A stretch of DNA of 64,000 nucleotides from Octopus vulgaris (taxonomy: Eukaryota): the NCBI GenBank assembly GCA_951406725.2, contig OX597838.1, forward strand, positions 20,770,001 through 20,834,000, read 5' to 3'. A model generated the notes under the pieces. That model saw nothing but the letters and a program-made list of their open reading frames with translations. It did no database searches and had not been told where the DNA came from. Shown here one piece after another: positions 6,738 through 40,679 of the stretch. The position numbers were made by a program, and so were the translations under genes. Each line of letters opens with the position of its first letter. The first letter of the stretch is position 1.

Positions 6738-7078
6738 TATTATATTAAATTAGAGATAAAACCACTATTAGGCAAATCATACAATGAAAAACTTAAGCCA
6801 ATACATAAGATTATTTAATTTATATTATTTAAATATATATCAAAATTATTAAAAAAGATAATTAATATAACGCTACGATCGTTTCATGGCTGTTCAATTC
6901 TTAAAATTTTCGAGTTACAGTCATTCTTCAGGTGGTTTACATATTTAACTTGGCGAGGTTTAATCAATTAATAATTTTGATATTTAAATAATATAAATTA
7001 ATTAATCTTCTGTATTGGCTTAAGTTTTTCATTGTATAATTTGCCTAATGGTGGTTTTATCTCTAATTTAATATAATA
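6738..7078 (-). mobile_element. Fold-back Penelope-like pLTR element in (TA)n
   Basis: Inverted arms of about 115 bp (6738-6852 and 6966-7078) with a hammerhead motif in the spacer. Confidence 0.75.
6869..6937 (-). ncRNA. Minimal type-I hammerhead ribozyme motif
   Basis: Minus strand: aaccac CTGAAGA atgactgt...acagccat GAAAC gatc GTA gcgtt. The core is intact, stem II is long, stem III is palindromic and stem I is weak. Confidence 0.7.
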
Positions 7079-7594
7079 TATATATATATATATATATATA
7101 AAAAGAATGCCTTTGAATTTGTTCCAACAGAGTCAATCTGAGGTGTAGACAACAACTTCTGAGTCATAAGTATGTTGTTGCTTTGTCCCCCTTATCAGGT
7201 CTAAACTAGACAGCACTATGGTCAAAAGCATTCCAGCCATGACCATCTTGTCTTTTTATAAATATCTCAGACAGTGTTATTCAAGTTTGTCCTTGTCTGT
7301 GTTTCAGGTAACTAGGGTGGTACTAGGCTGCTATTTCTGGCCAGTTAAGCTCTCTAATAAATCTTCTTGAGAGGTCAAAGTTTAATCTTAATTATCACTC
7401 CATCACAAGAATTCCCCCTCTGGGTCTGCTTGATCACAAACCAACTTGGAGTTGGCTACACAACACAAAATGCTTCAAATTCCAGCATATACAAAGCAAA
7501 AGGCCATTAGCGTACGATAATTAACAGTATTGCATTTATACTTATGTAGTCAATGAGTATTCTGTCCCAGAATACATTATCATTAGAGTTGATT

Positions 7595-7815
7595 ACTGTT
7601 GTTATTTAGCCACAGATGGCACCCAATCCGAACTAGACCACTGATCAAAAGCAATTCACCCATGACCATCCAGTCTTAATTTTTTTCTTTTTCAAAGTAT
7701 TACTGTAAACTTAGTATGGTATCCTTTTTTTTTTTAAGATGGTAGGATGTGATTTGAGAAAAACTTGGTTGCTTTTTTCGAGCAAGTTGAGCAACTCCAT
7801 AGATGTTCCCTTGTT
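7595..7815 (-). mobile_element. Old degenerate interspersed repeat (probable SINE 3' part)
   Basis: gttgtt..ttagcc...gatcaaa.gcattccagc..tgaccatc...gtgatttgag...tttggctgctatttc recurs at about 3640, 7170, 11785, 15800, 19270, 47650, 49490 and 50400. Confidence 0.55.
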
Positions 7816-8742
7816 CATTAATTATGGCTGAAGTTAATTACTGACAAGCTACTAATACTTTCTGTGGTGCTTGTTCAAAATGTTTATCATCAGAATGGTG
7901 GCATTTTGATAAGGTGAGGGTCACAGTTTTGAGTTAGGGTTAGGGTTTGTGTCATCTCAAATTAGTTTTGTTGGCTTGTCATTGGTTTTCAAGGGTTTTT
8001 AATTAATTACATTTACCCTAGTAAGGTACTGGCATGGGTGTGTAGTAACAAGTTTGCTTCTCAACCACATGGTTTTGTGTTCAATTCCACTCTGTGGCAC
8101 CTTGGGCAACTGTCTTCTGCTATAGCCCCAAGTTGACCACAGCCTTCTGTCAGTGGATTTGGCTGACAGAAACTGAAAGGAATCTGTTGTATGTTTATAT
8201 ATTTTCTGTTATTTTGTTAAATACTGGCTGTATTAATCCTGGTTTCTGCAATCAGGGAGGACAGGGATCTTAGTTTTCTTGCTTTGATTTCTTCCTTCTT
8301 GTTCCATTTTTTGCATCAATCTTCTTCACGTATTTTTTCTTTTCATATTTTTTTCTTATTTTCTCATTGTCCAGTGTCCTTGTTTTTGAAATATATATAA
8401 AGCATAAAACAGAACCTGAAGATTGATTGGAGATACATGGTTGTATTTTGTAAATATGCCTAAAGTATCACCAAAGCATGAAACTATTATTAGCTTTTTC
8501 AGTTGTGTATTAAATTGATATTTATCTCTCACTGGATGGAGTACTTTTTGTGTTGATTCTTCCTATATTGGATCTATAAACCATATATATATACACACAC
8601 ACACTTCCCAACCACATGGTTCTGGGTTCAGTCCTACTGCGTGGCACCTTAGGAAAGTGTCTTCTACTATATAAAGCCTTGGGCCAACCAAAGCCTTGTG
8701 AGTGGATTTGGTAGATGGAAACTGAAAGAAGCCCGTTGTGTG

Positions 8743-8773
<31 letters not shown>

Positions 8774-9466
8774 TTGTGTTGTCCCCCACCATCGCTTGGT
8801 GACTGATGTTGGTGTGTTTACGTTCTGAAACTTAGTGGTTTGGCAAAAGAGACTGATAGAATAAGTACTAGGCTTACAAAGAATATAAGTCCTGGGGTTG
8901 CATGGTTGCAATCAAATAACTGAAACAAAAATAAAAGAAAAAATATATAATGTGTGTATATTGAGGGGTGGGGGAGGTACTGTCTACTTGCCTTGAAATC
9001 TTTTGATATTTGTAAATGAGAGTTACAGTCAATGGAGTGGTGTCTTTCATTTCCAACCTTAACCAGAGGAATATTAATTTATTTGAAAATAGCTGAGGGC
9101 TGGAGACAGAAAGGGTATCCAACCATAGAAAATCTGCCTCAACAAATTCCATCCAACCCATGCTAGCACAGAAAAGTGGACATCAAAACAAGGAGGATGT
9201 TGGTGTCACACAGCTCTGCGTCATAAAATTAGTACCTTTTCAAATTATGGCTTCTGCACAGTCTCATCTCTGTTAAATTCCATCCACATGATGGTTAGTT
9301 AGTCAACTTAAATCTACAGTAAACAACACTTAAGATGCCAGTGATACTGTGGGATTGAATCTGGAAGCTTGAGGCTTCAAAGAAAACTTAACAAGAATTG
9401 CATAGAAACAGTGACTCGAGTGGCTCAAAATTTGATACCTCATGAAATAAATTTAAATGAATTTAA

Positions 9467-10244
9467 CCTCTTTACTGTGGACGTCAGATATATCTGCTCA
9501 AAATTTCATTGCTCTTACTTAAGTGCAAAAAGCAGTTTTGTATACCAATCTGTCTTTTGTTGAAGAATGTCACGTTTGAAACTATTTTTATGTATGTATG
9601 GATGGATGGTGGTTATGAGAGGTTAGGGTGTCAGTGAGACCCAAAGGTATCAGGTAATGCTGAATAAGTGCTATGCATAGACCATAGTTAAGTTCCAGGT
9701 TCAGTGATTATGTGAGTAAGGGGTCCAACTTAGGTCATATATCAGCATGTGTATATAAAAAATTTCTTTTCCGTAATGAGATAAAAAAACCAAGGCTGTG
9801 TAGATTTTAAAACATTTAGAAATAGGTCTTACAGCTGTTTCCGGGATATTTTATATATTCCTTCATCGGAGACGGTGTGAGAAAATGGTTGAGCGATAGT
9901 TAATATAGATACGATACGAAATAGAGAGTGAGGTGGAGGAATGAAAATAGATTTGAGATATGCAGGGATATTGTATTTGTAGATCCATTATTTAGGCAGA
10001 ATGGTATATATATAAGATTCCAGTATTCTATGAGTAAAATCCAATAGTATTTAAAATTGGTCATTTCAAGTATAGAGTTTATACACAGTGTTATTGAATC
10101 AAGGGTTTTATTTAAAGTGACCTAAAAGTAGGGGATGTGTGTATTTATCTTTCTATCATTGTACCTTTTGACTTACCCTCCCTCCTTTGTATCTTTTTGT
10201 CTCCAATGTCATGTTTGAAACTACTTAATTTCACAGTTAAAGGG
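9467..10244. mobile_element. TTAA-flanked MITE (family C) carrying nested insertions
   Basis: TTAA|CCTCTTTACTGTG...CACAGTTAAAGGG|TTAA. A related terminus lies at 33692-33724. Confidence 0.6.
9826..9873 (-). ncRNA. Minimal hammerhead motif in a Penelope-like fragment
   Basis: Minus strand: GTCT CCGATGA a ggaatat-ataaa-atatccc g GAAAC agct GTA AGAC. Stem I is GTCT/AGAC, stem III is palindromic, and there is one core change (U4>C). Confidence 0.7.
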
Positions 10245-10650
10245 TTAAAGATGTTGATTCATTTTATCAATCTCTACTGAATTAAGTGACACTTGACATA
10301 AAGAGGCACATCTCAAAAGACCAGTTCTCACCAGTAAAATTCAATATGAACACATTCCACCCATCCCCTTGTGCTTGAGAAATTTTTGTCAAGCCAAGTG
10401 AAATTGCAATTGTGGCCAGTGCTGGAGACGCATAAAAAGCATCCTTGCTGTTGACATGTAAAAGGCACTCATGGTAGTAACACATAAAAGGCATCCACTA
10501 CATTCTTGGAGTGGTGGTGTTAGGAAGGGCTTCCAAGTGTGGAAACCAAGCCAAATCAGACTGGAACCTGGTACAGCTTACCAGTTCCATTTAGACTGTC
10601 TAACCCAGGCCAGCATGGAAAGCAGATGCTAAGTAATAATAATGATGATA

Positions 10651-10703
<53 letters not shown>

Positions 10704-10707
<4 letters not shown>

Positions 10708-11050
10708 CACCATTCGAGTGTGATCGTTACCAGCATCGCCTTACTGGCACTTGTGAAAAAACATTCGAGCGAGGTCATTGCCAGTGCCGCTGGACTGACT
10801 CCTGTGCAGGTGGCACATAAAAAACACCATTTGAGCGTGGCCGTTGCCAGTACCGCCTGACTGGCCCTTGTGCCGGTGGCAAATAAAAGCATCCACTACA
10901 CTCTCGGAGTGGTTGGCATTAGGAAGGGCATCCAGCTGTAGAAACTCTGTCAGATCAGACTGGAGCCTGATGCAGCCATCTGGTTCACCAGACCCCAGTC
11001 AAATCGTCCAACCCATGCTAGCATGGAAAGCAGACGTTAAACGATGATGA
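10704..11050 (+). mobile_element. 3' end/3'UTR of an RTE-type LINE (repeat S4) with internal ~65-bp repeats and a (TGA)n tail
   Basis: ...aggaagggcatccagctgtagaaac...aacccatgctagcatggaaagcagacgttaaacgatgatga. Copies at 20047-20570(-), 27890-28258, 39168-39418(-), 53246-53610, 57851-58275(-), 60976-61180(-) and 62630-62988. The copy at 27950 continues from the RTE ORF end seen at 14700-14850. Confidence 0.75.
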
Positions 11051-11075
11051 TAGTTGCCATGAAGATCGTTAGCCA

Positions 11076-11242
11076 CTACACACATTTTTTTCTCTCCTTG
11101 TTTTTTCTGCGCCCCTTTCTGTAGAAGAGCGTAGGCTCGAAACGTAAAAGACTTTTTCTATTCCTGAGCGTTATACTAATACATCTGTTTGTTTTGTACA
11201 CCACCTGTCTTCGTCTTTGTTTTTTTTTTCGTAAACTCTCCC

Positions 11243-11243
<1 letters not shown>
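11076..11243 (+). mobile_element. Penelope-like pLTR fragment with a degenerate hammerhead (11115-11150)
   Basis: CTTT CTGTAGA a GAGC gtag GCTC GAAAC GTA AAAG; the fragment ends in (TA)n. Confidence 0.6.
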
Positions 11244-11273
<30 letters not shown>

Positions 11274-11729
11274 GATGGCATCTGTACAGTTTCTGTTTAC
11301 TAAACTCCACTCACAAAGTGTTGGCCCGCCCAATGTACCAAGCTGTGAGGTTGAATTTAGAAGCTTGTTGCTGCAACGCAAAGTTCCTAGCAACAAGACT
11401 ACACCAGCACATATGTCTGCAACTTCTTGATTTGTTTATTTTCACTTAGTGCTAACTGAAAGGCAGGAGATAATCAAGAACCATCTTTAATGAAATTACC
11501 TAGAATAGAGCCCCTGTCTTCTTCTATGTGCTGGTAACTTCACAGTGCACATTCCAGCAGCACTGTAATCAACAAGACAAAATCATTAACATAACCAATG
11601 ATTGTATTACGGACACTGTCGAAAATAAGTTAATGAAAGTTTAACGACCCATTGCTAAAATATCTCAATCAATCCCTTGTTAGATTGGTTTTGTTAAGTC
11701 ATCTGGTTCAAGTCAAACTGTCATCAGTG

Positions 11730-11771
<42 letters not shown>

Positions 11772-12523
11772 AGGGAGAAGCTGTGATTTGTTGTTTAAGT
11801 CTCAGGTCAGCCTATGCCAAGAAGATAATTGATCACAGGCACTCCAACTGTGACCATCATCCAAGTTCTTTTTCTTTATTATCCTTGGCATAGTACACAC
11901 AGTACACACTAGATCACATTGCCCAATGATTTTCTTCATTCTTTTTCAAGTTGCCATGGTTGTGCGTATTTTTATTAATAATTAAGCGCAGGCATGGTTG
12001 TGCAGTAAGAAGCTTGCTTCCCAACCACATGGTTCCAGGTTCAATCCCACTCTGTGGCACCCCTTTGTACAGCCATGTAATGACACGCATGCTTTTCTCA
12101 GCCTATTATCTTTTCTTTCTCTCCAAATCTTTCCTCTTTCTGACAAAGAGCCATGCTTGAAACATCACACTCCCTCTTTTTTAATCTATCTTAAACTGAG
12201 CACTGACCTGATACATTCACTGTGTACATCCTTTTGACTTTTGTTGTGTTTATTTTTCTTTCATGCATACATACATACATACATACAGTCACATGTGTAT
12301 ATCTTTATAAATACATGTATGTGTATTTATCTTTCTATCATTGTACCTTTTGACTTTCCCCTCATTCTTCATATCCATTTATCTGTAACTTTTTATCTTT
12401 TTCCTTTTTGCGTCTTATCTACTCCTACTCTTGTTATCTATATATGGCTCTTCCTCTTTCTCACTCTCACTCATCTGCACCCCTTCTTTATATCCTTCCC
12501 CCCATGCATATATGTATATATAC

Positions 12524-12557
<34 letters not shown>

Positions 12558-12561
<4 letters not shown>

Positions 12562-12875
12562 GTAAATGTAATATGTGACAATTATTTGGTAGCCATGATA
12601 AACCTCCGAGTTTCGGATGTCGGGGCAAAAATCCACGACGCCATCTTTTCAGGTATCCGGCCATCGGAAAAAACATAGCAATTTTTACTATTGGCCGGAT
12701 AACTGAAGAGATGGCGGCGTGGATTTCCGCCCCGACATCCGTACTCTGAGGTTTAACATGGCTACTGAATAATTGTCACATATTACATTTATAGATAAAT
12801 TCCTCTATTTACGTAGTGATGTCTCATAATATCGAGGTCTCTTTCATTCTTTTGTTGTCTTATCATTTTTTCTAT

Positions 12876-12878
<3 letters not shown>
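12558..12878 (+). mobile_element. Fold-back Penelope-like element with a hammerhead motif in each arm
   Basis: Inverted arms at 12558-12664 and 12691-12796, flanked by (TA)n on both sides. CTGAAGA at 12703-12709 (+) and GAAAC at 12610-12614 (-). Confidence 0.75.
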
Positions 12879-12916
<38 letters not shown>

Positions 12917-13279
12917 AATATGAGGATTATCTTTGCATTAATCTGGCAAGAATGACCAAGTCTATACTTTGTGGAAGAGGTCTAATAAGACTGAAATATG
13001 TTAGGAGTTGTGACTCATATTTGTGAAAACCAGATTAAAATAATATCATTCATTAAGCTAATGGTTTCTTCTCACTACGTAAATATAATTAATGTATTTG
13101 ATTTTTTTCCTTCACTTCTTCACTATAATTGTACTTTGGAATTTGATTTGGTGGAACTCAAAAGTTATCATACAAAGTTGTACACAGATAGAACAAAAGA
13201 AATGATAAAGGAGAGCAAGACAATAATCCATCCGACACACACATTTGTGTGTGTGTGTTTGTATTACATTTTATTTTCT

Positions 13280-13471
13280 TTACTTACTTGTTTCAGTCAT
13301 TTGACTGCGACCATGCTGGAGCACCACCTTTTAGCCGAGCAAATCAACCCCAGGACTTATTCTTTAGAAGCCTAGTACTTATTCTATCGGTGACTTTTGC
13401 CGAACCGCTAAGTTACGGGGACGTAAACACACCAGCATCGGTTGTCAAGCAATGTTAAGGGGGACAAACAC

Positions 13472-13503
<32 letters not shown>

Positions 13504-13888
13504 TCATATATACAATGGGCTTCTCTCAGTTTCCGTCTACCAAATCCACTCACAACGGCTTAAGACAAAGGGATTAAGTCGATTCCATCGACCCCCCCCC
13601 CCTCCAGTGTGTAACTGGTACTTAATTTATCGACCCCAAAAGGATGAAAGGTAAAGTCGACGTCGGCGGAATTTGAACTCAGAATGTAACAGCAGACAAA
13701 ATACCACTAAGCATTTTGCCTGACGTGCTAACGTTTCTGCCAGCTCGTTTGTCATTACCTTCTGCTGGAGTCGCATGGAGCTTTGGTGTTTCGCTCATAA
13801 ACACACACATTGCCTGGTCCGAGATTCGAACCCGTGATCCCTCAACCGCGAGTCCACTGCTCTAACCACTAGGCCATGTGCCTCTACA
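13280..13888 (-). mobile_element. Chimera of three SINE families (S1 head, S3, S2 3' part)
   Basis: Abrupt switches between families at about 13553-13560 and 13747; all three parts are on the minus strand. Confidence 0.7.
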
Positions 13889-14689: not shown

Positions 14690-14850
14690 CAGACTGTTTA
14701 ATCAAGGAACCTGTAGTAGAGAGAAACCCAGGAAGACATGGGATGAGGTGTTGAAGCATGACCTTGGAATTTTGAACCTCACAGAGGCAATGACTAGTGA
14801 CCGAGACCTTTGGTTATGTGTTCTGCTTAAGAGGACCCATCAAACCACAA
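14690..14850 (+). mobile_element. RTE LINE ORF C-terminal fragment
   Basis: GTCSREKPRKTWDEVLKHDLGILNLTEAMTSDRDLW fits the RTE GRP-KTW...DR-W motif. Confidence 0.7.
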
Positions 14851-15095
14851 CTTTTGAATGTGTAAGAGACATTATTAAGGGCAAGTTCACTGTGACATCT
14901 TGGCTGTAAAACTACACTGAAGATTTCCATCAAGATGGCATTTAGATCTGCCATCATGGATGAGTAAAAGAGGGCATACTTAGACTTCTGCATATTCAGT
15001 TGATTATAGCTGTTCATGGTGGACATATTTAGTAATATTTCCCCTTATGTTATAACAAACGTACAGTTTCATACTTCTATCTTTCCAACAAGTAA

Positions 15096-16254: not shown

Positions 16255-16497
16255 GCGGAGGCACGTGGCTTAGTGGTTAGGGTGTCAGCATCATGAGTGT
16301 AAGATTGTGGTTTCGATTCCTGGACCGGGTGACGTGTTGTGTTCTTGAGCAAAACACTTCATTTCACGTTGCTCCAGTCCACTCAGCTGGCAAAAATGAG
16401 TAACGCTGCGATGGACTGGCATCTCGTCCAGCTGGGGGACACATATGCCATTGAAACCGGGCTCATGAACCTGGGTAGGCTTTAAAAAGGGCGAAAG

Positions 16498-16542
<45 letters not shown>

Positions 16543-16785
16543 GAGGTGCGTGGCTTAGTGGTTAGGGTGTCCGCATCATGAGTATAAGATTGTGGTTTCG
16601 ATTCCTGGACCGGGTGACGTGTTGTGTTCTTGAGCAAAACACTTCATTTCACGTTGCTCCAGTCCACTCAACTGGCAAAAATGAGTAACGCTGCGATGGA
16701 CTGGCGTCCTGTCCTGCTGGGGGACACATACACCATTGAAACTGGCCTCATGAGCCTGGGTAGGCTTTAAAAAAGGCGAAAGATT
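16255..16785 (+). mobile_element. Tandem pair of near-identical S1-related SINEs
   Basis: Copies at 16255-16498 and 16541-16783, separated by (TA)n(TG)n; acacatgata occurs on both outer flanks. Confidence 0.85.
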
Positions 16786-17111
16786 TATTATTTTATTTAC
16801 TTACACATGATATGTCTCGATTGGTACACTATAAAATTACACTGAAGACATGCCTTGATTGGCACATTGTATTACACTTAACCCTATCACTCTGTGTTTC
16901 TGGTATAGCAGGAATAGCTTAAATGTGATCTCTGCCAGATTCCCGTTTAAGCGATAATGAGCAACACACATAGGAAATTAAAATACTAAAAATAGTCAGC
17001 TGATCACATTGCAGCTTTGTAGTCATGTGTGCTTATGGCTCATTATTAGTGGTGTCCCCATCATAGCTGTTGTTTACTTCTGTTTTTAATTGAAAAAAAA
17101 AAATAAAGGGT

Positions 17112-17446
17112 AATTGCAGCGTGGAAGGTGTTTATAAGCCATTTAAGAAACACACAAAATCCGTTAGATTCACTTCAACATTTAAATTTAATTTGTCAAA
17201 ATATTTTCGTCACTTTGAGTCTGCGACCTGTTCACTAACAAAATTCCGTGCTGGGAATTTTGACAGTGAATAGGTCATGGCTCAAAGCGCTGAAAATATT
17301 TTGACAAATTAAATTTAAATGTTGAAGTGAATCTAACGGATTTTGTGTGTTTCTTAAATGGCTTATAAGCACCTTCGTGCTGCAATTGTTTTCGTTCCAG
17401 CACACGATCTCAGATCAGGTCACCTGCTATGCAAGTACATCTCCGT
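17112..17446 (+). mobile_element. Long fold-back element (probable Penelope-like inverted pLTR)
   Basis: Inverted arms of about 135 bp (17112-17247 and 17254-17387) with a 6-nt loop, plus a 60-nt unpaired tail. Confidence 0.7.
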
Positions 17447-17924
17447 AAAAAAAAAAAAAAAAATCAAGATATTTTTGCAATGAAACAAGTGTGTGATGAA
17501 CCCCAGCACTTCATCTGGTAAACGAGCAACTCCTAGACTCTTTGCAGTTGAGGACATTATTCTTCAGGTGAAGAGTTTACCCTTACACAGACAACAAGAG
17601 TAATTTGGACAATCAAACTGGTGAAAGTAATGAGGAAAGTTGTGATTTGCTTGAACAAACATGGTTTTTCAGAGATAGGCCTATTATCATTGTTCCCCTA
17701 AATTTATTTTTATGATTCTGTTCAATAGTTTGCCAGCAATTGTTTACTCTTGAGCTGTAATAGGCAACTATTTATTTTTTTGCTGAGGAACCTTGGGGGT
17801 GGGGGCTGGGGTAAAGTTAGACACAAGGGCCCATATCTGAGAGGGTTAAGACATGCTTTGACTGTCAAACTGTACCATTATCAAAGACTCTGCTATATTG
17901 TACTGTATCTAAGACAGTGTAGCT

Positions 17925-19149: not shown

Positions 19150-20208
19150 TAATATTCTGCATCTTCTGCTTTGTAACCTGCTGAGCGATAGAGCTGAGTT
19201 GTTTATGACAAGACACTGAATAGAAGATGTAAGATGAGCTTCAGGAGGAGCATGGTGAGGTATACTGCACAAGGAGAACCCCCATGCTCACAGGAGTTAC
19301 TAGAAATAGGAGTTTAAACATCGTGACATCACACTCTGCCATCTTAAACAGGAAGCGTACATCAGACAATATTCCAGATATATAAGAGGTGATCATAAGT
19401 GGATCATAGGTCTCTAGTTAGCCCTGGTGATGTATAACCAATGACATTTGGTTGTAGAGCCCCAGGGTTAATTGGAGACTAAACAACGGCAATTGTAACA
19501 CTGAAATAGAAAAAAAAAAAACTGAAGCAGGGAAGCTAGGCTGAAGTTTTTTTTGTGTGGTTATTAACCCTTTAGTGTTTAAACTGGCCAAATCTGGCCC
19601 AATATATTCTACATATTTTATATTGAAACTGGCCATATCCAGCCTCTCACACCTAACCTGCATTGACATTCTAAAAATAAACAATCACATCACTGAAACC
19701 TCAATGCTTTAAGATAATGCATGATTTATTCAAAACAATTTGAGTGAAAAAGCATTACATTCAACAGAGTAATCTGAATACTAAGGGGTTTAATTTCCTC
19801 ACTCACAGTTTGTGAGTCTAGTCTGGTGGTTTGAGTGTTGCACTCATGATTGTAAGATTGTGGTTTCAATTCCTGGACTGAGTGATGCATTGTGTTCTTG
19901 CCCAAACACTTCATTTTATATTGTTCCTGTCCACTCAACTGTAAATAAGTAACCCTGTGATGGATTGGCATCCCATTCAAGGCAAATGTTATGACCTGTC
20001 TCTTGTATACCATGGGGACTGGGTTACTGGCCCTATGACTGAGACAGTCATCATCATTTAACTTCTGTTTTCCATGCTGGCATGGGCTAGATGGTTTGAT
20101 TGGAGCTGGTTAGCTGAAGAGCTGCACCAGGCTCCAGTAGTTTCTTTTGCTTTGGTTTCTACGGCTGAATGCCCTTCCTAATGCCAACCACTGCACAGTG
20201 TACTGAGT

Positions 20209-20568
20209 GTCTTTTACATGTCACTGGCACAGGTGCCTTTTTCGTGTCACTGGCATGGGTGCCTTATACGTGTCACTGGCATGGTTGCCTTTTGTGTGTC
20301 ACTAGCATGGTTGCCTTTTGTGTGTCACCGGCATGGTTGCCTTTTGTGTGTCACCGGCAAGGTTGCCTTTTGTGTGTCACCGACATGGGTGCCTTTTACG
20401 TGTCACCGGCATGGTTGCCTTTTGCGTGTTACCGGCATAGTTGCCTTTTGCGTGTCACCGGCACAGGTACCTTTTGCATGTCACCGGCACGGGTGCCTTT
20501 TGCGTGTCACCGGCACGGGTGCCTTTTGCGTGTCACCGGCACGGGTGCCTTTTGCATGTCATCGGCAT
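20209..20568. repeat. 26-bp minisatellite (about 14 copies) inside a minus-strand S4/RTE 3' repeat
   Basis: Unit tgtcaccggcaYggKtgccttttgYg, head-to-tail with no spacers. Confidence 0.9.
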
Positions 20569-21322
20569 CAACCAATAAGTATGCTGCCAGCTTTCTCAGG
20601 AACACTCAGTTCAAGAGGGGGTCCCTAGGTTCTAAAAGGCTCCGTCTGCTTGGCACTGGAACTCTAGGCGAGGCTCCGTCTCCAAAGGGTTAAAATTGTA
20701 AACCAGTATTTCTCAGCCTTTTTTGACTTAATTGTGCACTGTAGATCAAAGTGACTATTATTAGAGCACTTAAAATAGAAAAATAATTTTTTTCAGAAAA
20801 CCTGTTTGAAAGGGAAAACTTAAAAAAGAATTATAAAGGAAACTATTGACGACCTTGAGTTATGAACTTTTTTACCATGGGTGTCACCTTGTGCAGTATA
20901 CTTCCACTGTAATTGTATGAACCTAAAATGTGTCATCATTTAATCTCTGTGGACCAAAAACCATTCAGTATTTTTACATGTAACTTTTGTCGTTTATTTA
21001 CATTGTGATCACATGTCTACTGGTAAATAATGTATGTACGGTGTGCCAACAAAGCAGTCACTGAGCCAACTCGTGTCATATAGTCTGGCTATTGCCATGG
21101 AGAAGAATATCTAAACAGCTGCACAAAGCATAACTTGCAAACGCTTAAAAGTCTAACAATATACACCATTCAATTATATATACAGCAATTAACTACAACA
21201 TTCAAACTTTTTAGCTCTTATTTCTAGCGGTGTAGGTGTTTTAACACCCTAGTCATATCTAATGATAATATAGTTTTTCCTTTTTGGTAAAACATTGCAC
21301 ACTGCTGTCTATATTAAAATAT

Positions 21323-21382
<60 letters not shown>

Positions 21383-22010
21383 ATAGGAGCAAAACGCCCC
21401 CCCGCCCAATGGACGGTGCACAGTTTAAACCAAATTCTCTCAAAACAACTTGTCTGACCTTCCCATAGGCCTCCCCTTTGAGAAACACTGATTTAACCTA
21501 AATTTGAGACACCAGCAAAAGAAGAAATAAAGATAGACTTTTTTCTATTCCAAAGAAAAACAATTTCCCACGGCTTTATCGATCGCATTCTCACCTGGAA
21601 TCGAGTTTTGTAATTTTTTCAAGATTTATACATACCCTCATACCGTAGGTATCTACATATCAAATTTGAGCACAATCGGATGGAGGATGCCCGAGATCTC
21701 AGGAGACACACACACAGACAGAACGGATTTTATACAATATATATATGCTTCTGTAAATGAAAACCTTACCTGTTATTGTGGTTTTGTGGCACGAAGCAAA
21801 GCAGGCCTGGCTGTTCACTCAAGAAAACACATAATAAATGACCCAGAAGTTCTTGTGCAAACTGAGTCTTCAACTTATTCCATTTGCCCGAAGGTTTGCA
21901 AGGCACCAGTAGGCCTCAAGAGACACACATGGGTCCTTAGAACACGATTACCACTTTAATTTACTGAACCCTCATTTATCGTTCACAACAGAGAGTCCAT
22001 CATAAATATA

Positions 22011-22576
22011 TTGGGTTGTCCAGAAAGTTTGTGCCGATTTTTAAAGGAAAGAAAAAGGTCAATAAATACTTGCCATTACATTTTGAATCAACCAAATATG
22101 AACCATTTTGTTGCACAATGTGTCTCCATCTTTCCTTTAACTTGAAAATACCCTCTTCCCAGAATTGAAGTGGTTTCATGGCAAAGAATTCATCTAGGTC
22201 TCTTTTTATGTCATCCAAGGAATTGAAATTTTTACCATTAAGACTATTCTGCTGAGACATGAATAAGTGGAAATCCGAAGGAGCAGTATCTGGTGAATAT
22301 GGAGGGTGGGGTAACACATCCCAGCCGAGCTGCAGCAATTTTTGTCTGGTTCTCAAAACATCAAATGCCGAAAATGAACTTTCTTATCTTCCATTTTAAA
22401 TGGTTATAGAATTAACACAGGTTATAGGAACATAAACCTTCTTCCACGAAAAGATAGCTTAAACTGTGCTCTAAATGGAGGTGTGGTCAAATCCTATTTT
22501 ATGGACTCAACCATGTTCTAAAATAAGTCGAGAGGTAAGCTACTATAAATCGGCACAAACTTTCCGGACAACCCAA
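22011..22576 (-). mobile_element. Internally deleted mariner transposon
   Basis: TA-flanked TIRs of about 30 bp (ttgggttgtccagaaagtttgtgccgattt). Transposase start MEDKKVHFRHLM (ATG at 22394) is fused out of frame to the C-terminus LGWDVLPHPPYSPDTAPSDFHLF (mariner YSPDLAP-D motif). Confidence 0.93.
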
Positions 22577-23250
22577 TATATATGTAACAACGTGAACAAA
22601 AATGGAGAAAATCGCATCTTTAATTGGTGATTACATCATACATTACTGATAATTGTTTCTATCGTGCTAGCATATCTTGATACGTGAAAGAAATAGAAAA
22701 TTCCAGTCAAATTAATATATCCAAAAATATATGCTAATACAAAGTTATCAAGGCAATCCAAAATGGGTTAAATTCAGAGTGAACTAAGAAAATATCTCTA
22801 ATAGATGAGCGCACACAGACAGAACGTTATGAAGAAATATAATATTCTAAGAAATGCCAGTTTAACATTTAACTTTTGATGACGTCAGTAGATAATGAAT
22901 GAATAAAGAATAAACATTAGAATTCTATTTTCACAACAATTAGAGACATAGAAATGCTACATCATGACAATTAGTTAGCCATCTATTAAATATGCTAAAA
23001 AAGATTTTTAGAAAAATTATGCATATTAGATTATAGGGAAAGCAATTATAATTAGTGGGTTATTTAGTATTAGATGTTAATTCTACTTGCATTTATTGGT
23101 ATCTGATTGTTTTGATAGTCTTTTGTTCTTTTACTGGTTTCAATCATTTGGCTGTGGCCATGCTGGAGCACTGCCTCGAACCGCTAAGTTATGGGGATGT
23201 AAACACACCAACACCAGTTATCAAGTGGTGATGGTGGAGGACAAGCACAG

Positions 23251-23990: not shown

Positions 23991-24469
23991 CCATAATTTC
24001 TATGATCTGGATTGACATCCGCAACTGTTGTGGTAGAGGTGGTTCACAGTCGGTAGATTTGAGGGAAATTTGGCTGTTGTTTCTTGGACATTGAATGACA
24101 ACATAGAGGCTTTCTCATTCTCATTTGGTTTCTTCTGTATTGTAGGAGTTGGTCTTGGCAACTTACTGACAGCTGCTGCTTTCTTCAGGGAAAAAAACTA
24201 TATAATTTTATTTAAAAAAAAATCAAGCTAACAAATAGAAGCAAAAATCTAAAATCCTAAACTCTATTCTATTGATTATCTTAATCAGACAATTTTCTTG
24301 ATGAAAAGCCGTTGTCCTTGAGAAAGTGTTTTATTTTGGCACAATTCATATGTATTGTATCATATTCTTGAATGTTATTGATTTGATTTTATAGATCTGG
24401 TAGTTCCGAGATTATTATGGCAAACAAAATAGGACAGAAGAAATTGTATAAAAATAATAATAATTATAA

Positions 24470-24980
24470 TGGTTCTTTCTAATTTTGGCACAAGGCTAGC
24501 AGTTTTTGAGGGGAGGGGACAGTTGACTACATTGAACCCAGTGCTCAACTGGTACTTATTTAATCGAGCCTGAGAGGATGAAAGCTAAAGGCGACCTTAG
24601 GGGCCATTTGAAGTCAGAATGAAAAGAGCCGGAAGACATGCCACTAAACAGTTTGTCCAGCACAGTAACAATTCCGGCTGGTCATTGCTTTTATCATTAT
24701 GATTATCATTATTATTATTATTATTAGTAGTAGTAGTTGTAGTAGTATTTGTTTTAAGGTAGCAGGCTGGCAGAAGCATTAGCACACTGGGCAAAGTGCT
24801 TAACATTATTTCGTTTTTCTTTACGATCTTAAGTAGAAATTCCTCTGAGGTCAACTTTGCCTCTCATCCTTTTGGGGTTGATGAGATAAGTACCAGTTAT
24901 GCACTGGGATCGATATAATCGACTACCCTCTCCCCCCAAATTTCAGGCCTTGTGCCTTTAGTAGAAAGGATTATTATTAC

Positions 24981-25016
<36 letters not shown>

Positions 25017-30075: not shown

Positions 30076-31090
30076 TTTTTTTTTTTTGTTGGCATCCTTT
30101 TGTCTCAGGAGACAATGGAGTTGGGCATAAACTAATCCAGTCTGGTTTTTACATTTCATGTCCTCTCCAGTTTTGTGCAGGCCTGGGCTAGATGTAAGAA
30201 TATCCTGGGTAGCCCAATCGTCAGGATTTCCTCTCTCGACCTTGCTGACGTAGTGCAAAGGAGTGCAGAGCATTACGTTTGGCACCGGCTTGGTTGCAGG
30301 AGCTGCCGGAAGAGTGTCGAGACGAACACTAAACTGCCTACAGGGCTCCACTCTGGATTTCTTTGAAGGTTGTCTCCTTCCCATAACCCTGGATAGGGGT
30401 CCATACCGGGTACTGTCAGCCAGAGCCAGCTGAGCCCGGTACTCATGTCACGCAGGGTCGTCACTCCTTGAAGTATTGAAGAAAATCGTTACCCACTACC
30501 TAAATTAGGGCTCCACTCTGGATTTCTTTGAAGGTTGTCTCCTTCCCGTAACCCTGGATAGGGGCCCATACTGGGTACTGTCAGCTGGAGCCAGCTGAGC
30601 CTGGGACTCGTGTCAGGTAGGGTCGTCACTCCCTGAAGTAGTGGAGAAAATCGCTACCCACTACCTAAATTAGGGCTCCACTCTGGATTTCTTTGAAGGT
30701 TGTCTCTTTCCCGTAACCCTGGATAGGGGCCCATACCAGGTACTGTCAGCTGGAGCCAGCTGAGCCTGGGACTCGTGTCAGGTAGGGTCGTCACTCCCTG
30801 AAGTAGTGGAGAAAATCGCTACCCACTACCTAAATTAGGGCTCCACTCTGGATTTCTTTGAAGGTTGTCTCTTTCCCGTAACCCTGGATAGGGGCCCATA
30901 CCAGGTACTGTCAGCTGGAGCCAGCTGAGCCTGGGACTCATGTCAGGCAGGGTCGTCACTCCCTGAAGTAGTGGAGAAAATCGCTACCCACTACCTAAAT
31001 TAGGGCTCCACCCTGGATTTCTTTGAAGGTTGTCTCCTTCCCATAACCCTGGATAGGGGCCCATACCGGAGCCAGCTGAGACCGGGACTG
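30076..31090 (+). mobile_element. RTE-LINE 5'UTR-like insertion inside a family-A MITE
   Basis: T12 followed by gttggcatcc...gtttggcaccggcttggttgcaggagctgccggaag...gggctccactctggattt, resembling RTE-clade 5' regions as I recall them. The MITE resumes at ggatatggctgg. Confidence 0.55.
30342..31090. repeat. 165-bp tandem repeat, about 4.5 copies
   Basis: Units start at 30342, 30507, 30672, 30837 and 31002; copies 2-4 are nearly identical. Confidence 0.95.
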
Positions 31091-32565: not shown

Positions 32566-33145
32566 AAGGCGGCGAGCTGGCAGAAACGTTAGCACGCCAG
32601 GCGAATTGCTTAGCGGTATTTTGTCTGCCGCTACGTTCTGAGTTCAAATTCCGCCGAGGTCGACTTTGCCTTTCATCCTTTCGGGGTCGATAAATTAAGT
32701 ACCAGTTACGTACTGGGGTCGATATAATCAACTTAATCTGTCGTCTGTCCTTGTTTGTCTCCTCTGTGTTTAGCCCTTTGTGGGTAGTAAAGAAATAGGT
32801 ATTTCATCTGTCTTTGCATTCTGAGTTCAAATTCCGCCAAGGTCGACTTAGCCTTTCATCCTTTCGGGGTCGATAAATTAAGTACCAGTTACGTACTGGG
32901 GTCGATATAATCAACTTAATCTGTCGTCTGTCCTTGTTTGTCTCCTCTGTGTTTAGCCCTTTGTGGGTAGTAAAGAAATAGGTATTTCATCTGTCTTTGC
33001 ATTCTGAGTTCAAATTCCGCCAAGGTCGACTTAGCCTTTCATCCTTTTGGGGTTGATAAATTAAGTACCAGTTACGTACTGGGGTCGATCTAATTGACTG
33101 TCCCCCCTCCCACAAAATTTCAGGCCTTGTGCCTAGAGTAGAAAA
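32566..33145 (+). mobile_element. Trimeric S3 SINE (183-bp period) with an 18-bp TSD
   Basis: ttctgagttcaaattcc at 32636, 32819 and 33002; gattgtgaatgagtgtgt at 32548-32565 and 33146-33163. Confidence 0.9.
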
Positions 33146-33870: not shown

Positions 33871-34033
33871 TAGGCGTAGGAGTGGCTGTGTGGTAAGTAG
33901 CTTGCTTATGAACCACATGGTTCCGGGTTCAGTCCCACTGCGTGGCACCTACTATAGCGTCTTCTACTATAGCCTCGGGCCGACCAGAGCCTTGTGAGTG
34001 GATTTGGTAGATGGAAACTGAAAGATGCCCGTC

Positions 34034-34093
<60 letters not shown>

Positions 34094-34312
34094 GTGTGTG
34101 TATATGTTTGTGTGTCTGTGTTTGTCCCCCCAACATCGCTTGACAACCGATGCTGGTGTGTTTACATCCCTGTAACTTAGCGGTTCGGCAAAAGAGACCG
34201 ATATAATAAGTACTAGGCTTACAAAGAATAAGTCCTGAGGTTGATTTGCTTGACTAAAGGTGGTGCTCCAGCATGGCCACAGTCACATGACTGAAACAAG
34301 TAAAAGAGTAAA
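33871..34312 (+). mobile_element. S2 SINE, full length
   Basis: aggcgtaggagtggctgtgtgg head through to the gtaaaagagtaaaaga tail. Confidence 0.9.
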
Positions 34313-35738
34313 AGATGGGTCAAATGACAACCTCATCACACTGACATGATGCTGCCACTGTTTGTCTTTTGTATCATTTCTACCACTGGAAGTGCTGTGA
34401 TGAACTTTTCCCCTTAGTTCCAGATCCCTTTGTCCCATCTTGCCGGACTCAAAACTCACAGCGTCTTCATTCAGATGCTGTCGTGCCTCCATAAATAAGG
34501 AAATCTTTCTATGGTTGTAGCTTTTTGCCTCGAACTTTCAGACTTTGGAATTCTCTTCAATCTCATTGTTTTTCTCCTTTTCATGACCTGAACTTTTTCA
34601 AATTGAAAGTAAATTCATTGCTTTCATTTTAACTTCCTCTTCTCCATAATCTGTTATACTTAGTAACTTTTTGCCTTGTTTCGGACTTTGAAAAAAAAAA
34701 ATGATAGAAAAGAAAAAAAAAAAGTAAAAACAGCTCTTCCATGATTAAGTTGCTTTAGTTCCAGCACACAGCACTCGGATCATCTCTTGCTATTTATTGC
34801 TAGACAAGTTCAAATCAGAAATGTTTATAAATTTTGTAAACTTTGTATTATTAACAAGACTTGTGTCATAAAAGAATTTTATTCTGAAAAAGTGTCACCA
34901 AGGAGAAAAGTTTAGAAAGGTCTACACAAACCTTTTGGCAAGATATCCGCTTTCCTCTAAATGGAAGAAAAAAAAAAATTCCAATTTTAAATTCAGGATG
35001 TTTGTATGTTGTCTAGAAGACTTCTTCAGGATGTTGGTATTGTTTTGTTTATATTTCCATGTTCTCAGAAACTGCAAGGCCATTTTTATTTTTCTGCTGA
35101 AGGGAGTGGAAAATAAGTGTTTGCAGGCATGAAGAATTGCTGCATATTGCACTCAATGACAAGGAATAACAGTCGAGAGAGAGATGGATGGATGATGGTG
35201 TGGTCGTTTTGATACTATGAATGGGTGTTAAATACCAGGATATGGTCTTGAGAGAACGGAAAGGAATGAGAACAGGACCTTGGTTGAGATTTTTTTCATT
35301 AAAAACATAACATCATAACTATCCATTGGAGATAGAGAAAGGGTGGTGGTGGTAACCATTAAGTGAAATAATTAGGATGTTGAAAGCTGAGGAAACTGCA
35401 GAGCCTTTAGGGTATGATGGCAAAAATGTCAAAACTGGCTGGGGACAGGAAATAGCTAATTAATAATTGTACAAGATTATTTGCTGATAGGGTTATCTAT
35501 GAATGGCATGCCACCATCGTTGTCAACTATCTACTGCAGAGGTCAAGGACAGCATACACTGGACAGCTGGGATAATGAGAGATCTGTCTACATAGAGAAG
35601 GTAAAGATGTTGGGTAGTCCTTGGGCAGCTCTGATAGAAAAGATATATAATCGAATGCATTCTTGTTGAGACCATCATTCTCTCTTTATTTAGACATGAT
35701 AAATCTAAAACATCCAAGATACCCCTACCTCTTTTTAA

Positions 35739-36357
35739 CCCTTTAGCATTTAACCCTCTCGTTACTGTATTTAGTTTGAGATGCTCTGTGTTTCTTTCAA
35801 TTACTTATAATTTCAATTCATCATCATCATCATCGTTTAGCGTCTGCTTTCCATGCTGGCATGGGTTGGACGGTGCAACTGGGGTCTGGGAAGCCAGATG
35901 GCTGCACCAGGCCCAGTCTGATCTGGCAATGTTTCTACGGCTGGATAATAATATTCAATTCAATTCAATATATAATTTCAATTCAAATTAAATTCAATAT
36001 AACAAAGAATTTAGTAAAATAACTTAGTTATCATTAAGCTAGTGTTAGGAACATAAATTGGTGGAAAATTTTAATCCAAAACTTATGAATACAAAACATT
36101 AGTACTCGGAGCCAGAGTTGGTTTCAGCCGGGTTGGTAACGAAAGGGTTAAACCAGCCATATCCAGCCCAAATATTCTTCTTGTTTTCTGTTCAAACTAG
36201 CGAGATTTGATCTTTCACCACCTACCTTACAATGTTTTTCTGAAAATAAACAACCATATCATCAAAATCTCGAAGCTATGAGATGATACATGATAAATTC
36301 AAAACAATGCGAATAAGTAAGCATTATGTTTGACAAAGTAACCTGAGTGCTGAAGGG
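35739..36357. mobile_element. Triple nest: MITE A > MITE B (35754-36147) > S4 fragment (35819-35946)
   Basis: The inner MITE sits in a duplicated TTAA within the terminus of the outer MITE. Confidence 0.85.
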
Positions 36358-36877
36358 TTAAAGATAGGGGCATTTGGTTTGAGGGATTTAGTTGCTGTTT
36401 TGGCAGTTTGAATGACCCCACGAAGACTTCCTTGTTGATCTTTTGCTATTGTTGGTATTATTGTTTTTTATTTTGTTCTGAGAAATTAGGCAGGTGTATC
36501 TTTTATTTATTTCATTCATTTGACTGTGGCCATGCTGGGGCTCTGCCTTGAAGGGTTTTAGTCCGACAAATCAACCCCCAAGCTATTTTTTTTGTTAAGC
36601 CTGGTACTTATTCTATCAATCTCTTACGCTGAATTGCTAAGTTACAGGGATGTAAACACACCAACACCAATTGTCAATTGGTGGTGGGGGACGAACACAG
36701 ACACTGATGTATACACATTCATATACATATATACATGCAATGGGCTTTTTTCAGTTTTCATCTATCAAATCCACTCACAAGGCTTTGGTCAGCCCGAGGC
36801 TATAGTAGATGACACTTGCCCAAGGTGCCATGCAATGACTCTGTGTGTATGCAAAAGGGAGGTCTGTGAATGTTCCT

Positions 36878-36913
<36 letters not shown>

Positions 36914-37539
36914 AATGGAAGTGGGATGGTGAGCATTCAATGCTGAAAAGAAAAATCAAACAGTGTTTCAACTCTGTGAATATGTGTGTGCATGTACAAA
37001 GGAAATATGTGAATATTTGTATATGAACCAGCATTCTTTCAGTAACAAATGATGCTCGATGTCACATCTGTAAAGACAACCACTAGATAACATTGACAAG
37101 TGTATAAATTTGATTTGCCATCCATATTTATAAATAAAATACTGAAATTTTTGATGGCACGGGGCCAGCTGCTATAATATAATCCTTAATATAATGAGGC
37201 TACACTAAGTGTATCTAGTGTTTGTAACTGAAACTCTGCTAATCCTTCCTTTAGCCATCCATCACACTCTCCCTCAGTAACTCAAATCTCACACTGATGC
37301 TAATCACTTCTCAGAAAGAATGAAATAGAGAACGGAGGAAAGAGTTTTCTTGTAAATGTGAATATCTTCCGGTCAGTTGCTATGTCACTGCCCAGCAATA
37401 CTTTTCCCCTCTTGTAAAAGTGACATCAGTGTCGGCCTGTCTCGGTGTTAAACAGAGATTCTTCTACACAGTTATTTGATATGCTGAAAATAGTAGTCAT
37501 ATCTCAACCTTGTTTGCTAGAATAGAAAACAGACATTAA

Positions 37540-37751
37540 CCCTTTTGTTACTGTATTTATTTCTGTGTTTCTTTTAATTACTTTAAATATAACAAAGAAT
37601 TTAGTAAAATAACTTAGTTATCATTAAACTAGTGTTAGGAATATAAATTGTGACTAAAGTTTGGTGATATATTCTAATGCAAAACTTATGAAAACAAGAC
37701 ATTTGTACTACAGAGCCAGAGCCAGTTTTGGCCGGGTTGGTAACAAAAGGG
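37540..37751. mobile_element. TTAA-flanked MITE, family B
   Basis: TTAA|CCCTTTTGTTAC...GTAACAAAAGGG|TTAA with perfect 12-bp TIRs. Confidence 0.88.
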
Positions 37752-38807
37752 TTAAATGATGATGGTATTTGCTGGACAATTCATTTCCTTAAATCTGAAA
37801 AGAATGTACAATGTGATGCTGTTTGTATACAAAAAAAAAGTGAGATCTTATGTGTACAGAGAGGAAAGTTTGCTTGGTGGGAGGTGTTTGTCCTAGTATG
37901 AAAACATGATAGTGATGATAATAACGACGTGTTGAGTATATCAGACAACTGACGAACACTTTGCTCCGTTAAAAGCAGCCACTATATAATAAGCTGTAGT
38001 ACTTGACAGCTCCTGTAGATAATGACAACCTCAGTGACTACACAGGGCAAGACAAAGAGCTTATTATATTACATAAATGATTATATCTGTCAGCAGCATA
38101 TACCAGCAGAATTTTTTTTGTGACCCAGTTTGAATTTTCAATTGGAACCACATCACATAGCAAAGTTCTGTGACTGCAGATGATTTCTTTTTTTTTAATA
38201 ACAAATCAATATAAGTCAATCAAGTTTTAATTTACAAATAGAAAAAAAAAACATTTTTACAAAACCAGCATCTATTTTCTTTTTTTTTTTTTTACGGGCC
38301 CTCTGCCCTCTGTTTTTCCCATAGCAACCATCTAAAACTAAAGAAATTACAATGAAGTGTTTGACCTTTTTCACCCAATAAACAAATTGAAGAGTGTGAC
38401 AAGACAGCTGTTGTAGAAAATGTCAGCCTTAATGGGGGATTCGAAGAACAGTCTGTTTGCATGTTTGCAGGACACTGTTGATATGATGGGACCTTCTATA
38501 TATTAACCTTTTCCTATAAACACACCAACACAAAACAAACCAACTAATGTTGTTGCTGCTTCTTTTTTTTTTTGTTTTTGTTAATTAGAAATTTTTTTAC
38601 TTTACATTATGATTATTTGTGTGTATATATACATGTGTGTTTGTGTGTCTCTGTGTGCTTATATAATGTGTATGTGTGTGTAGATCAGACTGGAGCCTTG
38701 TGCAGCCTCCTGGCTTCCCAGTCCCCGGTCGAACTGTCCAACCCATGCTAGCATGGAAAATGGATGTTAAATGATGTTGATACACACACACACACACACA
38801 CATATTG

Positions 38808-39142
38808 GAGACCCCCCTCAGTCACAAATGACCATGGGATTGCACCTAGAAAGTTACCCTCCGAGGCACAAGTCCGGGCAAGGTTGTTTATGGAAGACCA
38901 GATGTCACCCAAGCATACTGGCTTCCCCTCTCCATGCCACCGATGTTATCTGAGGGAAAGGCAAGGGCCTATACAGCTTGGCACCAGTGATGTTGCAACT
39001 CATTTCTACAGCTGAGTGAACTGGAGCAATGTGAAATAAAGTGTCTTGCTCACGAACACAACACACAGCTCGATCTGGGAATCGAACACACAACCTCATG
39101 ATTGTAAGTTTGACACTCTAACCACTGAGCCATGTGCCTTCA
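38808..39142 (-). mobile_element. tRNA-derived SINE (S1-related subfamily)
   Basis: Inverted homologue of 58295-58635; tRNA-like head ggcacatggctcagtggttagag. Confidence 0.8.
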
Positions 39143-39435
39143 CACACACACACACACATACATATATTATCATCATCATCATCATCATCGTTTAATGCCC
39201 ATTGTGCATGCTGGCATGGGTTAGATGGTTTGACCAGGGCTGGAAGCCTGAAAGGCTGCACCAGACTCCAGTCTGATCTGGCATGGTTTCTATGGCTCTT
39301 CCTGACACCAACCACTCTAAGAGTGTAATGGATACTTTTATGTGCCACTGGCATGACTGCGGTTTTACCTGGCTTGATTGGTCTTCTTCTCAAGCATGAC
39401 ATAATGCCAAAGGTCTCAAATATATATATATATAT

Positions 39436-39476
39436 AGTCTGATGATGGCTTAACTGGCCAGAACTTCAAAGTCACT
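39436..39476 (+). ncRNA. Degenerate minimal hammerhead motif in a (TA)n-flanked element (39436-39590)
   Basis: AGT CTGATGA TGGC ttaactg GCCA GAA-C TT ca AA GTC ACT. All three stems and the GUC triplet are present, but one A is missing from GAAA. Confidence 0.65.
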
Positions 39477-40679
39477 GTCAACAGCACTCTTGTATAAGAA
39501 TAATAAATTTGTTTTTTTATAAAAGTATAGAGTAATCCATCAGATTAATGTAAAATTGTTTTTATTATAACTAATCATAAGAACAAACAATATATATATA
39601 GCGCGAGAGAGAGAGAGAGAGAGAGATTTTTGTGCCCACTTTTCTATGCTTGTATGGGTTACATGGTACTTTTTGTAACAATGTCTTACAGATGGGTGCT
39701 CTCCCTGATGCCAACACTTTTAGTTACTCTTTTTTACATGCAAAGATACAGTGTCCCTATGCTAAAGACCAGTAAAAAAAACAAAAAAAAAAACCAGAAA
39801 AAAACAGGCACTCTGTCGGTTATGATGACAAGGGTTCCAGTTGATCTGATCGAAAAAACTTGCTCATGAAATTAACGGGCAAGTGGCTGAGCACTCCACA
39901 GACACATGTACCCTTAATGTAGTTCTCTTGGAGATTCAGCATGGCACAGAATGTGACAAAGCCGGCCCTTTGAAATACAGACACTACTCATTTTTGCCAG
40001 CTGAGTGGACTGGAGCAACAGGAAAATAAAGTGTCCTGCTCAAGGACTTGCTCAAGGCCAGGACTTACAGCCAAAAATGGTAGGTTGACTTGTACACCAG
40101 GACAGCTTTGCAGAGCTGAAAATTCCTAGTAAAATGCAGCAGAATTTGGAAAGATATTAATAACACTTGAATGTTTACACGACACACTATTTTGATTTTT
40201 ATTGCGAAAATTACATTATGATCAATCACATTCCAGCTGTAACTATTCAGTCAATTTTTCTATGTGCTGGGAAGACACGACCGCAATACTCTTTTACTCT
40301 TTTACTTGTTTCAGTCATTTGACTGCGGCCATGCTGGAGCACCGCCTTTAGTCGAGCAAATTGACCCCGGGACTTATTCTTTGTAAGCCCAGTACTTATT
40401 CTATCGGTCTCTTTTTGCTGAACCGCTAAGTGACAGGGACGTAAACACACCAGCATCGGTTGTCAAGCAATTGTTGTGAGAAAAGGTTGCTATTTCTAGC
40501 AGGTCAAGCAATTGTATAGAAGCTCTCTCATTGGTTCATTTTCGGCTGTACATGTGTTTGTGTGTACAGGTAATTTCACTAGCATGTGTTGTGCATAGCT
40601 TCTTCTTTTTCCTCTCCCCCCTCTTTCAATTATCTGCTGTGTAGAAAAAGAAATGCTGTTTATCAAATTGGTTTCTCTT

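Follow-up and report, generated by a model that had tools for sequence, protein, structure and literature searches.

Minimal hammerhead motifs of likely Penelope-like element origin in 64 kb of Octopus vulgaris DNA, and an abundant family with a G3–C8 core

A 64,000-nucleotide stretch of Octopus vulgaris DNA (GenBank assembly GCA_951406725.2, contig OX597838.1, positions 20,770,001 to 20,834,000 of the forward strand; the window) holds six small elements that a sequence-only reading had described as carriers of a minimal hammerhead ribozyme motif, the kind found in the pseudo-long terminal repeats (pLTRs) of Penelope-like elements (PLEs). They are labelled E1 (6.9 kb), E2 (9.8 kb), E3 (11.1 kb), E4 (12.6 kb), E5 (39.4 kb), and E6 (17.2 kb). 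The window is repeat-rich eukaryotic DNA with a GC content of 33–44%; self-repeats cover 40% of it, and tandem repeats fill 67 rows. The features of the six elements, in window coordinates, are as follows.

6725–7091, both strands: E1, asymmetric foldback with arms at 6725–6836 and 6980–7091 (96%) and (TA)n at both ends
6870–6935, minus strand: E1 minimal hammerhead motif, descriptor score 9.6, predicted cut after 6874
9826–9873, minus strand: E2 minimal hammerhead motif, descriptor score 7.9, H17 at 9830
11116–11150, plus strand: E3 minimal hammerhead motif, found by all three descriptors, H17 at 11146
12554–12877, both strands: E4, head-to-head foldback (~12554–12811) with a one-sided extension (~12812–12877), bounded by (AT)26 and (AT)18
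17112–17387, both strands: E6, head-to-head foldback belonging to a very abundant family of repeats, with the 3′ ends pointing outward
17192–17242, minus strand: E6 left-arm motif with a G3–C8 core, read from the pair table, top descriptor score 9.7
17259–17308, plus strand: E6 right-arm copy, more decayed, core GUGAAUA, with G3 at 17266 and T at the C8 position, 17271
17388–17447, plus strand: E6 one-sided tail of ~60 nt, common in the family as judged from contig depth and loose ends
39435–39589, plus strand: E5, flanked on each side by an (AT)n tract, descriptor score 8.3, H17 at 39473

The hammerhead architecture had been ascribed to every element. It fits E1, E2, E3, E5, and E6, with departures, and fails in E4. 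In these five, stems I and II abut the core, stem III is palindromic, and an NUH triplet is present (stem I of E1 is weak), so that by their letters they appear to have the geometry that defines PLE minimal type-I hammerheads and are putative members of PLE families. E1 has an intact CUGAAGA core (6931–6925, minus strand), GAAA, GUA, and the stem III palindrome ACGAUCGU; stem II pairs at 7 of 8 positions and the decayed stem I at 2 of 4. The core of E2 is CCGAUGA (U4C; 9869–9863, minus strand), accompanied by a stem I of 4 bp, GUA, and the stem III palindrome ACAGCUGU. E3 has CUGUAGA plus an extra A (A6U; 11119–11125, plus strand), a stem II of 4 bp, ACGU, and GUA, and the element extends to a (TA)15 tract at 11243–11273. 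This core, CUGUAGAA at 11119–11126, carries A6U within an otherwise intact geometry and is a possible second core variant at the family level. E5 has an intact CUGAUGA core (39439–39445, plus strand), a stem II of 4–5 bp, GUC, and the near-palindrome ACUUCAAAGU; its GAAA is short of one A, hence GAAAC is absent.

A CUGANGA-like core followed by GAAAC had been claimed for five of the elements. Only in E1 are both the CUGANGA(H) core and GAAA intact; E2 (U4C), E3 (A6U), and E5 (one A missing) depart from this pattern, and E4 has GAAAC in its left arm only. A Watson–Crick pair is present at 3–8, as C–G in E1, E2, E3, and E5 and as G–C in the left arm of E6 and the majority of its family. An extra base follows A9 in E2, E3, E5, and E6. 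The elements are mutually unrelated, as had been proposed: blastn found no similarity among the six, and the window holds one copy of each.

A search of the window against Rfam showed no hammerhead family among 100 matches at E ≤ 10, the best of which are repeat or hairpin artefacts. Of three purpose-made descriptors, the two earlier ones recovered E3 alone among the six elements (3 matches against a mean of 0.43 for the first, 2 against 0.17–0.53 for the second). The others escaped because neither version allowed stem I to be decayed, stem II to have an unpaired base on each side, an A to be absent, or the 3–8 pair to be G–C. The third descriptor is modelled on the published PLE hammerhead consensus, with one lesion tolerated and any pair allowed at 3–8. 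It ranks the left arm of E6 highest (9.7), followed by E1 (9.6), E5 (8.3), E2 (7.9), a site at 20751 on the plus strand (6.7), and E3 (6.5), so that five of the six best matches (score ≥6.4) are elements already named: E1, E2, E3, E5, and E6. Six matches at ≥6.4 compare with a mean of 0.47 (maximum 3) in local dinucleotide shuffles, and 0 of 400 shuffles reached six at this score, four at 7.5, or two at 9.5, although this test overstates significance because the descriptor was tuned after the elements had been seen. The reversed window, in which all palindromes are retained, gave no match at ≥6.4.

The match at 20751 is an AT-rich, unrelated site and probably chance; those at 22646, 16011, 10375, and 62980, all on the plus strand, were treated as chance. 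Elsewhere, the E6 patterns had no match across viral, metagenome, and prokaryote collections, and the E3 pattern had none in viral contigs. An E2-type pattern occurred at four metagenome loci, three amid non-PLE prokaryote- or virus-like open reading frames (ORFs) and one without a large ORF; the hammerhead was unconvincing by eye, and these too were set aside as chance.

The elements had been read as lacking coding capacity. In the 250 window ORFs that passed a filter excluding those under 45 aa, mostly-repeat ORFs, and low-complexity ORFs, a Pfam search found no reverse transcriptase (RT), no GIY-YIG, and no other above-cutoff family; there were five weak sub-cutoff matches. The parent RT and GIY-YIG ORF to which the elements were to be extended is thus missing from this set, as would be expected in the window where copies are truncated, and no host exon was found in it either. 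Since neither was found, the PLE membership of the elements is putative and the intron in which they had been placed is a presumed one.

Three of the six elements (E1, E4, and E6) consist of two inverted copies arranged head to head, their 3′ ends facing outward, an inverted 5′-truncated copy standing beside the insertion. In E1 the long arm (minus strand) holds the hammerhead; the short arm, an inverted copy of the E1 3′ end, is more heavily truncated and begins beyond the hammerhead on its downstream side, which makes the two arms unequal in truncation. E1 formally fits the layout of a miniature inverted-repeat transposable element (MITE), with terminal inverted repeats, and target-site duplications are unreadable inside (TA)n. 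Two of the three foldbacks have a tail at one end only, of ~65 extra bases in E4 and ~60 in E6. E2, E3, and E5 carry the motif without inverted repeats, and the window contains no head-to-tail tandem arrays of hammerhead units. Most of the elements adjoin (TA)n, as had been noted: a (TA)5+ tract lies within 150 nt of the core in five of six, against a background of 15% (P ~4e-4, with the threshold chosen afterwards). The core of E6 is 720 nt from the nearest such tract, and the loose ends of its family are AT-rich.

E4 has the core words CUGAA(A/G)A in both arms, at 12652 (minus strand) and 12703 (plus strand), and was missed by all three descriptor versions. It has core words without canonical geometry and is not counted as a confirmed hammerhead.

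The left arm of E6 has the core GUGAACA starting at 17235 on the minus strand, with G3 at 17235, C8 at 17230, and an extra G at 17228; GAAA lies at 17208–17205, stem III is the palindrome AAUAUU, and U17 is at 17199. The sequence-only reading had described this sixth element, at 17.1 kb, as having the same geometry with an aberrant core. The geometry stands, and the core proves to be a compensated G3–C8 swap that is the majority form of an abundant family. A transcript of the whole foldback is predicted to form one long hairpin (−198 kcal/mol). The ends of a single arm (~17244–17253 and the arm 3′ end) are complementary over ~10 nt, and a single-arm RNA could self-pair its ends. The tail, over 17388–17435, starts with a pyrimidine run ending in CAG, which resembles a splice acceptor, followed by ATG; introns are possible in PLE pLTRs. 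A weak match to the start of the tail, without arms, lies at 34750–34782 (82% over 33 nt, E 0.017).

Contigs from DNA runs of four organisms (16091, 5429, 10787, and 7898) were aligned to 17106–17446. G3 and C8 are the majority letters of the family in all four. Among the 40 of 44 variant rows displayed, no variant of ≥10% falls in the left-arm core (17229–17235) or GAAA (17205–17208). All counted C>G and G>C changes are accounted for by rows at 17253, 17283, and 17377, which leaves less than 10% for the C3–G8 form in every run. The majority letters at 17212 (87–92%) and 17237 (99%) mend both broken pairs, and the left-arm mismatches are private to the window copy. Majority pairing is 7/7 in stem I and 5/5 in stem II, with G10.1–C11.1. 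The family majority of E6, the kind of consensus suggested earlier as a check, has both stems and GAAA intact, with a G3–C8 core and no two-sided covariation. The variant at 17196 (17–42%) retains a U·G pair, and the variable places 17217, 17220, and 17222 are in loop II.

The summed depth of arms to tail is 1.4–1.8, roughly fitting two arms and one tail per insertion, although depth is no measure of copy number. Between 38 and 70 contigs per run leave E6 near 17253; their loose ends start with CATCT and enter AT-rich sequence that is unrelated and agrees poorly. This common exit point is a hint of a fixed short template. Depth also falls gradually towards the 5′ side. There is no sharp depth edge at the predicted cut site, and thus the E6 copies are unlike products of cleaved RNA. 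Variants at 17160, 17166, 17186, and 17217 stand at 10–39% in runs X1, X4, and X7 and below 5% in X12, a split that suggests an E6 subfamily expanded in three of the four organisms.

The six elements are likely decayed, 5′-truncated pLTR ends of several PLE families, and the master template of the E6 family, which at majority level carries a G3–C8 core, was probably partly active. The motifs, the foldbacks, the tails, the (TA)n adjacency, and the family letters of E6 are the observed part of this explanation. The proposed link to PLE minimal hammerheads and to microsatellite targeting gains support from the geometry, the inverted arrangement, the tails, and the (TA)n adjacency. The foldback-plus-tail anatomy and the compensated swap are points that the sequence-only reading did not contain.

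A PLE RT/GIY-YIG protein encoded elsewhere would insert each element into AT-rich or (TA)n DNA. By analogy with the Anolis element PAc, the protein would nick both target strands and prime two cDNAs at neighbouring start sites on uncleaved RNA. Both cDNAs would then stop early and join head to head at their 5′ ends to give two outward arms, and the interval between the two internal start sites would become the tail on one arm. The minimal hammerheads are predicted to cut only as dimers or with protein help. E6 likely keeps partial activity, given that engineered C3G/G8C mutants do, and its U17 would avoid a competing G3–C17 pair. The hammerheads of E4 and E6 lie on opposite strands with no dimer in cis, and the predicted E6 transcript is a long hairpin; hence the genomic copies are probably inactive relics, in which the antisense arm would pair over the ribozyme and inactivate it. 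More tentative is the proposal that this abundant family of at least four related organisms spread with a working reversed 3–8 pair (G3–C8, U17).

In metazoan genomes, Cervera and de la Pena (2014, PMC4209133) report minimal hammerheads by the thousand per genome as solo copies in many heterogeneous families, including solo truncated motifs and opposite-strand pairs 100–700 bp apart. The sequence-only reading took the window to record a diverse set of ribozyme-bearing retroelements. Since solo motifs of this dispersed kind have been described from metazoan genomes in massive and heterogeneous numbers, the set is ordinary rather than a new system. The window elements resemble those PLE hammerheads: stem I is short, a base is added after A9, stem II is present, stem III is palindromic or tiny, and the motifs are dispersed as unrelated families, with some pairs on opposite strands. 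They differ in the A6U of E3 and in the G3–C8 of E6, absent from the Fig. S3 rows examined; no cephalopod is among the Table S1 and Fig. S3 entries examined. The same paper reports low or slow activity of PLE hammerheads even as dimers and with a normal core, and a covariant U3–A8 in Schistosoma mansoni. Natural U3–A8 cores (Perreault et al. 2011, PMC3088659) keep a Watson–Crick pair at 3–8, as E6 does. The engineered C3G/G8C hammerhead (PMC11167929, PMC8495972, PMC3884650) keeps it as well; unlike that mutant, E6 has G3–C8 by nature, as the majority form of a high-copy repeat in four organisms, with an activity that is predicted only. In Anolis PAc, cleavage is lost with C3G or G8C alone and recovered in part when the two are combined (Frangione et al. 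2024, PMC11167929). According to a published remark, with data not shown there, a G3–C8 variant performs worse with C17 than with G17.

The PLE footprint of Craig et al. (2021, PMC8557442) consists of 5′ truncation, an adjacent inverted copy, a one-end tail of 30–40 bp, and a (TA)n bias. Like endonuclease-containing (EN+) PLEs and Naiads (PMC8557442, PMC11167929), the window elements show 5′ truncation, an inverted neighbour copy, a one-end tail, and a (TA)n or AT-rich target. They differ in the length of their tails and in having hammerhead-like motifs, whereas Naiads are described without canonical hammerheads. For PAc, two neighbouring RT start sites, extension of both target strands, mostly uncleaved RNA, and protein assistance to the hammerhead are reported, and insertion in vitro is independent of hammerhead cleavage (PMC11167929). 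A 2026 preprint derives animal non-LTR retrozymes from pLTRs (bioRxiv 10.64898/2026.07.22.740005); like the window elements they are non-coding, related to PLE pLTRs, and carry a type-I hammerhead, but they form head-to-tail tandem arrays where the window elements are solo or head-to-head. The PLE clade of the elements (Neptune, Poseidon, or other) is assignable only from protein.

Literature searches found no cephalopod PLE hammerheads. The largest survey of PLE hammerhead variants is reportedly that of Lunse, Weinberg, and Breaker in 2017. Outside that survey, Przybilski and Hammann 2007, and data given only in figures, no natural G3–C8 core was found in the literature and supplements searched. 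A squid genome paper counts 235 Rfam hammerhead-1 matches, and a 2026 repeat annotation of Octopus vulgaris counts Penelope families, with ribozymes unmentioned in the parts of its text examined.

Besides the overstated chance test, several points weigh against decayed PLE ends with a partly active E6 template. In monomer folding energy, none of the six elements beats its shuffles (z −1.0 to +0.8), and in dimers the minimum free energy structure has a stem III duplex between molecules in only two of eight arms (E1, E2). UUU is a poor cleavage triplet. No parent ORF for any element emerged from the 250 window ORFs or the four metagenome loci, and the tails measure ~60–65 nt versus the 30–40 published for PLEs. 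U4C, A6U, and the missing A of E2, E3, and E5, each a single copy here, may be decay or family traits, and in E4 a C ahead of GAAA is unpaired, stem III is imperfect, and stem I is one out of register. In the E6 family, two-sided compensatory change in the stems is absent from the contigs of the four runs, depth over the core is ~1/6 of the two-arm peak, G3>A occurs on the right arm in one contig in each of two runs, and four of the 44 variant rows were hidden. The family majority reflects one master template rather than selection on copies.

These points bear on three other explanations. The E6 motif could be a dead or repurposed hammerhead, its non-cutting fold kept by one amplified master template or by PLE protein recognition; this is the less likely reading. 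PAc inserts in vitro without hammerhead cleavage (PMC11167929), PLE hammerheads are slow even with a normal core (PMC4209133), the −198 kcal/mol hairpin of the foldback transcript hides the motif, and contig variants lack two-sided covariation. However, two changes exactly restore the 3–8 pair while the other core positions and 12/12 pairs of stems I and II are intact, an outcome improbable by drift alone, and the engineered double mutant is partly active (PMC11167929). Some elements, chiefly E6, might instead be dedicated non-autonomous retroposons, fixed short units like retrozymes or short interspersed nuclear elements, and not random PLE truncations. The exit at 17253 shared by all four runs (38–70 contigs each), the great abundance of the family, and the proposed descent of animal retrozymes from pLTRs (bioRxiv 10.64898/2026.07.22.740005) speak for this. 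It is nonetheless a doubtful alternative, as the window has no head-to-tail arrays, the defining trait of non-LTR retrozymes, depth declines gradually in the 5′ direction, and short-read contigs break at hairpin centres. The earlier description of the families as non-autonomous finds a hint of a fixed short unit in E6 and is not established for E1–E5, which may be truncated autonomous PLEs.

A MITE-like DNA transposon origin of the foldbacks, with long terminal inverted repeats, TA target sites, and a hammerhead geometry that arose by chance, is very improbable. The inverted repeats of E1 and E4 are flanked by TA, RT was not found in the window, and a mariner remnant shows that DNA transposons were active here. 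Yet the arms of E1 are unequal in length, the tails of E4 and E6 are one-sided, no inverted repeats accompany the motif in E2, E3, and E5, and the motifs score above both the shuffles and the palindrome-preserving reversed window.

The cluster itself is known biology, namely truncated PLE ends with minimal hammerheads, and the new point is the G3–C8 family of E6. G8 supplies the general acid in hammerhead catalysis. The family matters because the swap is otherwise found in the searched literature only as a partly rescuing laboratory mutant; if E6 cuts RNA, it would be an unusual natural hammerhead variant. A natural high-copy carrier of G3–C8 also bears on whether PLEs need efficient cleavage, a question of Craig et al. 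(2021) and Frangione et al. (2024). Ribozyme searches should admit any pair at 3–8. If this is right, swapped-core families would be invisible to CUGANGA descriptors and Rfam, animal hammerhead counts would be too low, and swapped cores may be present in some of the PLE clades recorded as having no hammerhead. The foldback with one tail, in a family of thousands of contigs, also lets the two-start-site priming model be read from genomic copies.

Other repeats share the window. An inverted repeat at 24448–24995 has arms of 70 and 123 nt (71–74%) next to (TTA)n/(ATT)n, and the hammerhead descriptor is silent there. Local tandem arrays lie at 16257–16788 (period 285 bp), 20207–20568 (26 bp), 30342–31067 (165 bp), and 32636–33094 (183 bp). 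The mariner-type transposase remnant is at 22003–22383 on the minus strand, with ~56–74% identity to SETMAR/mariner animal proteins among the matches listed.

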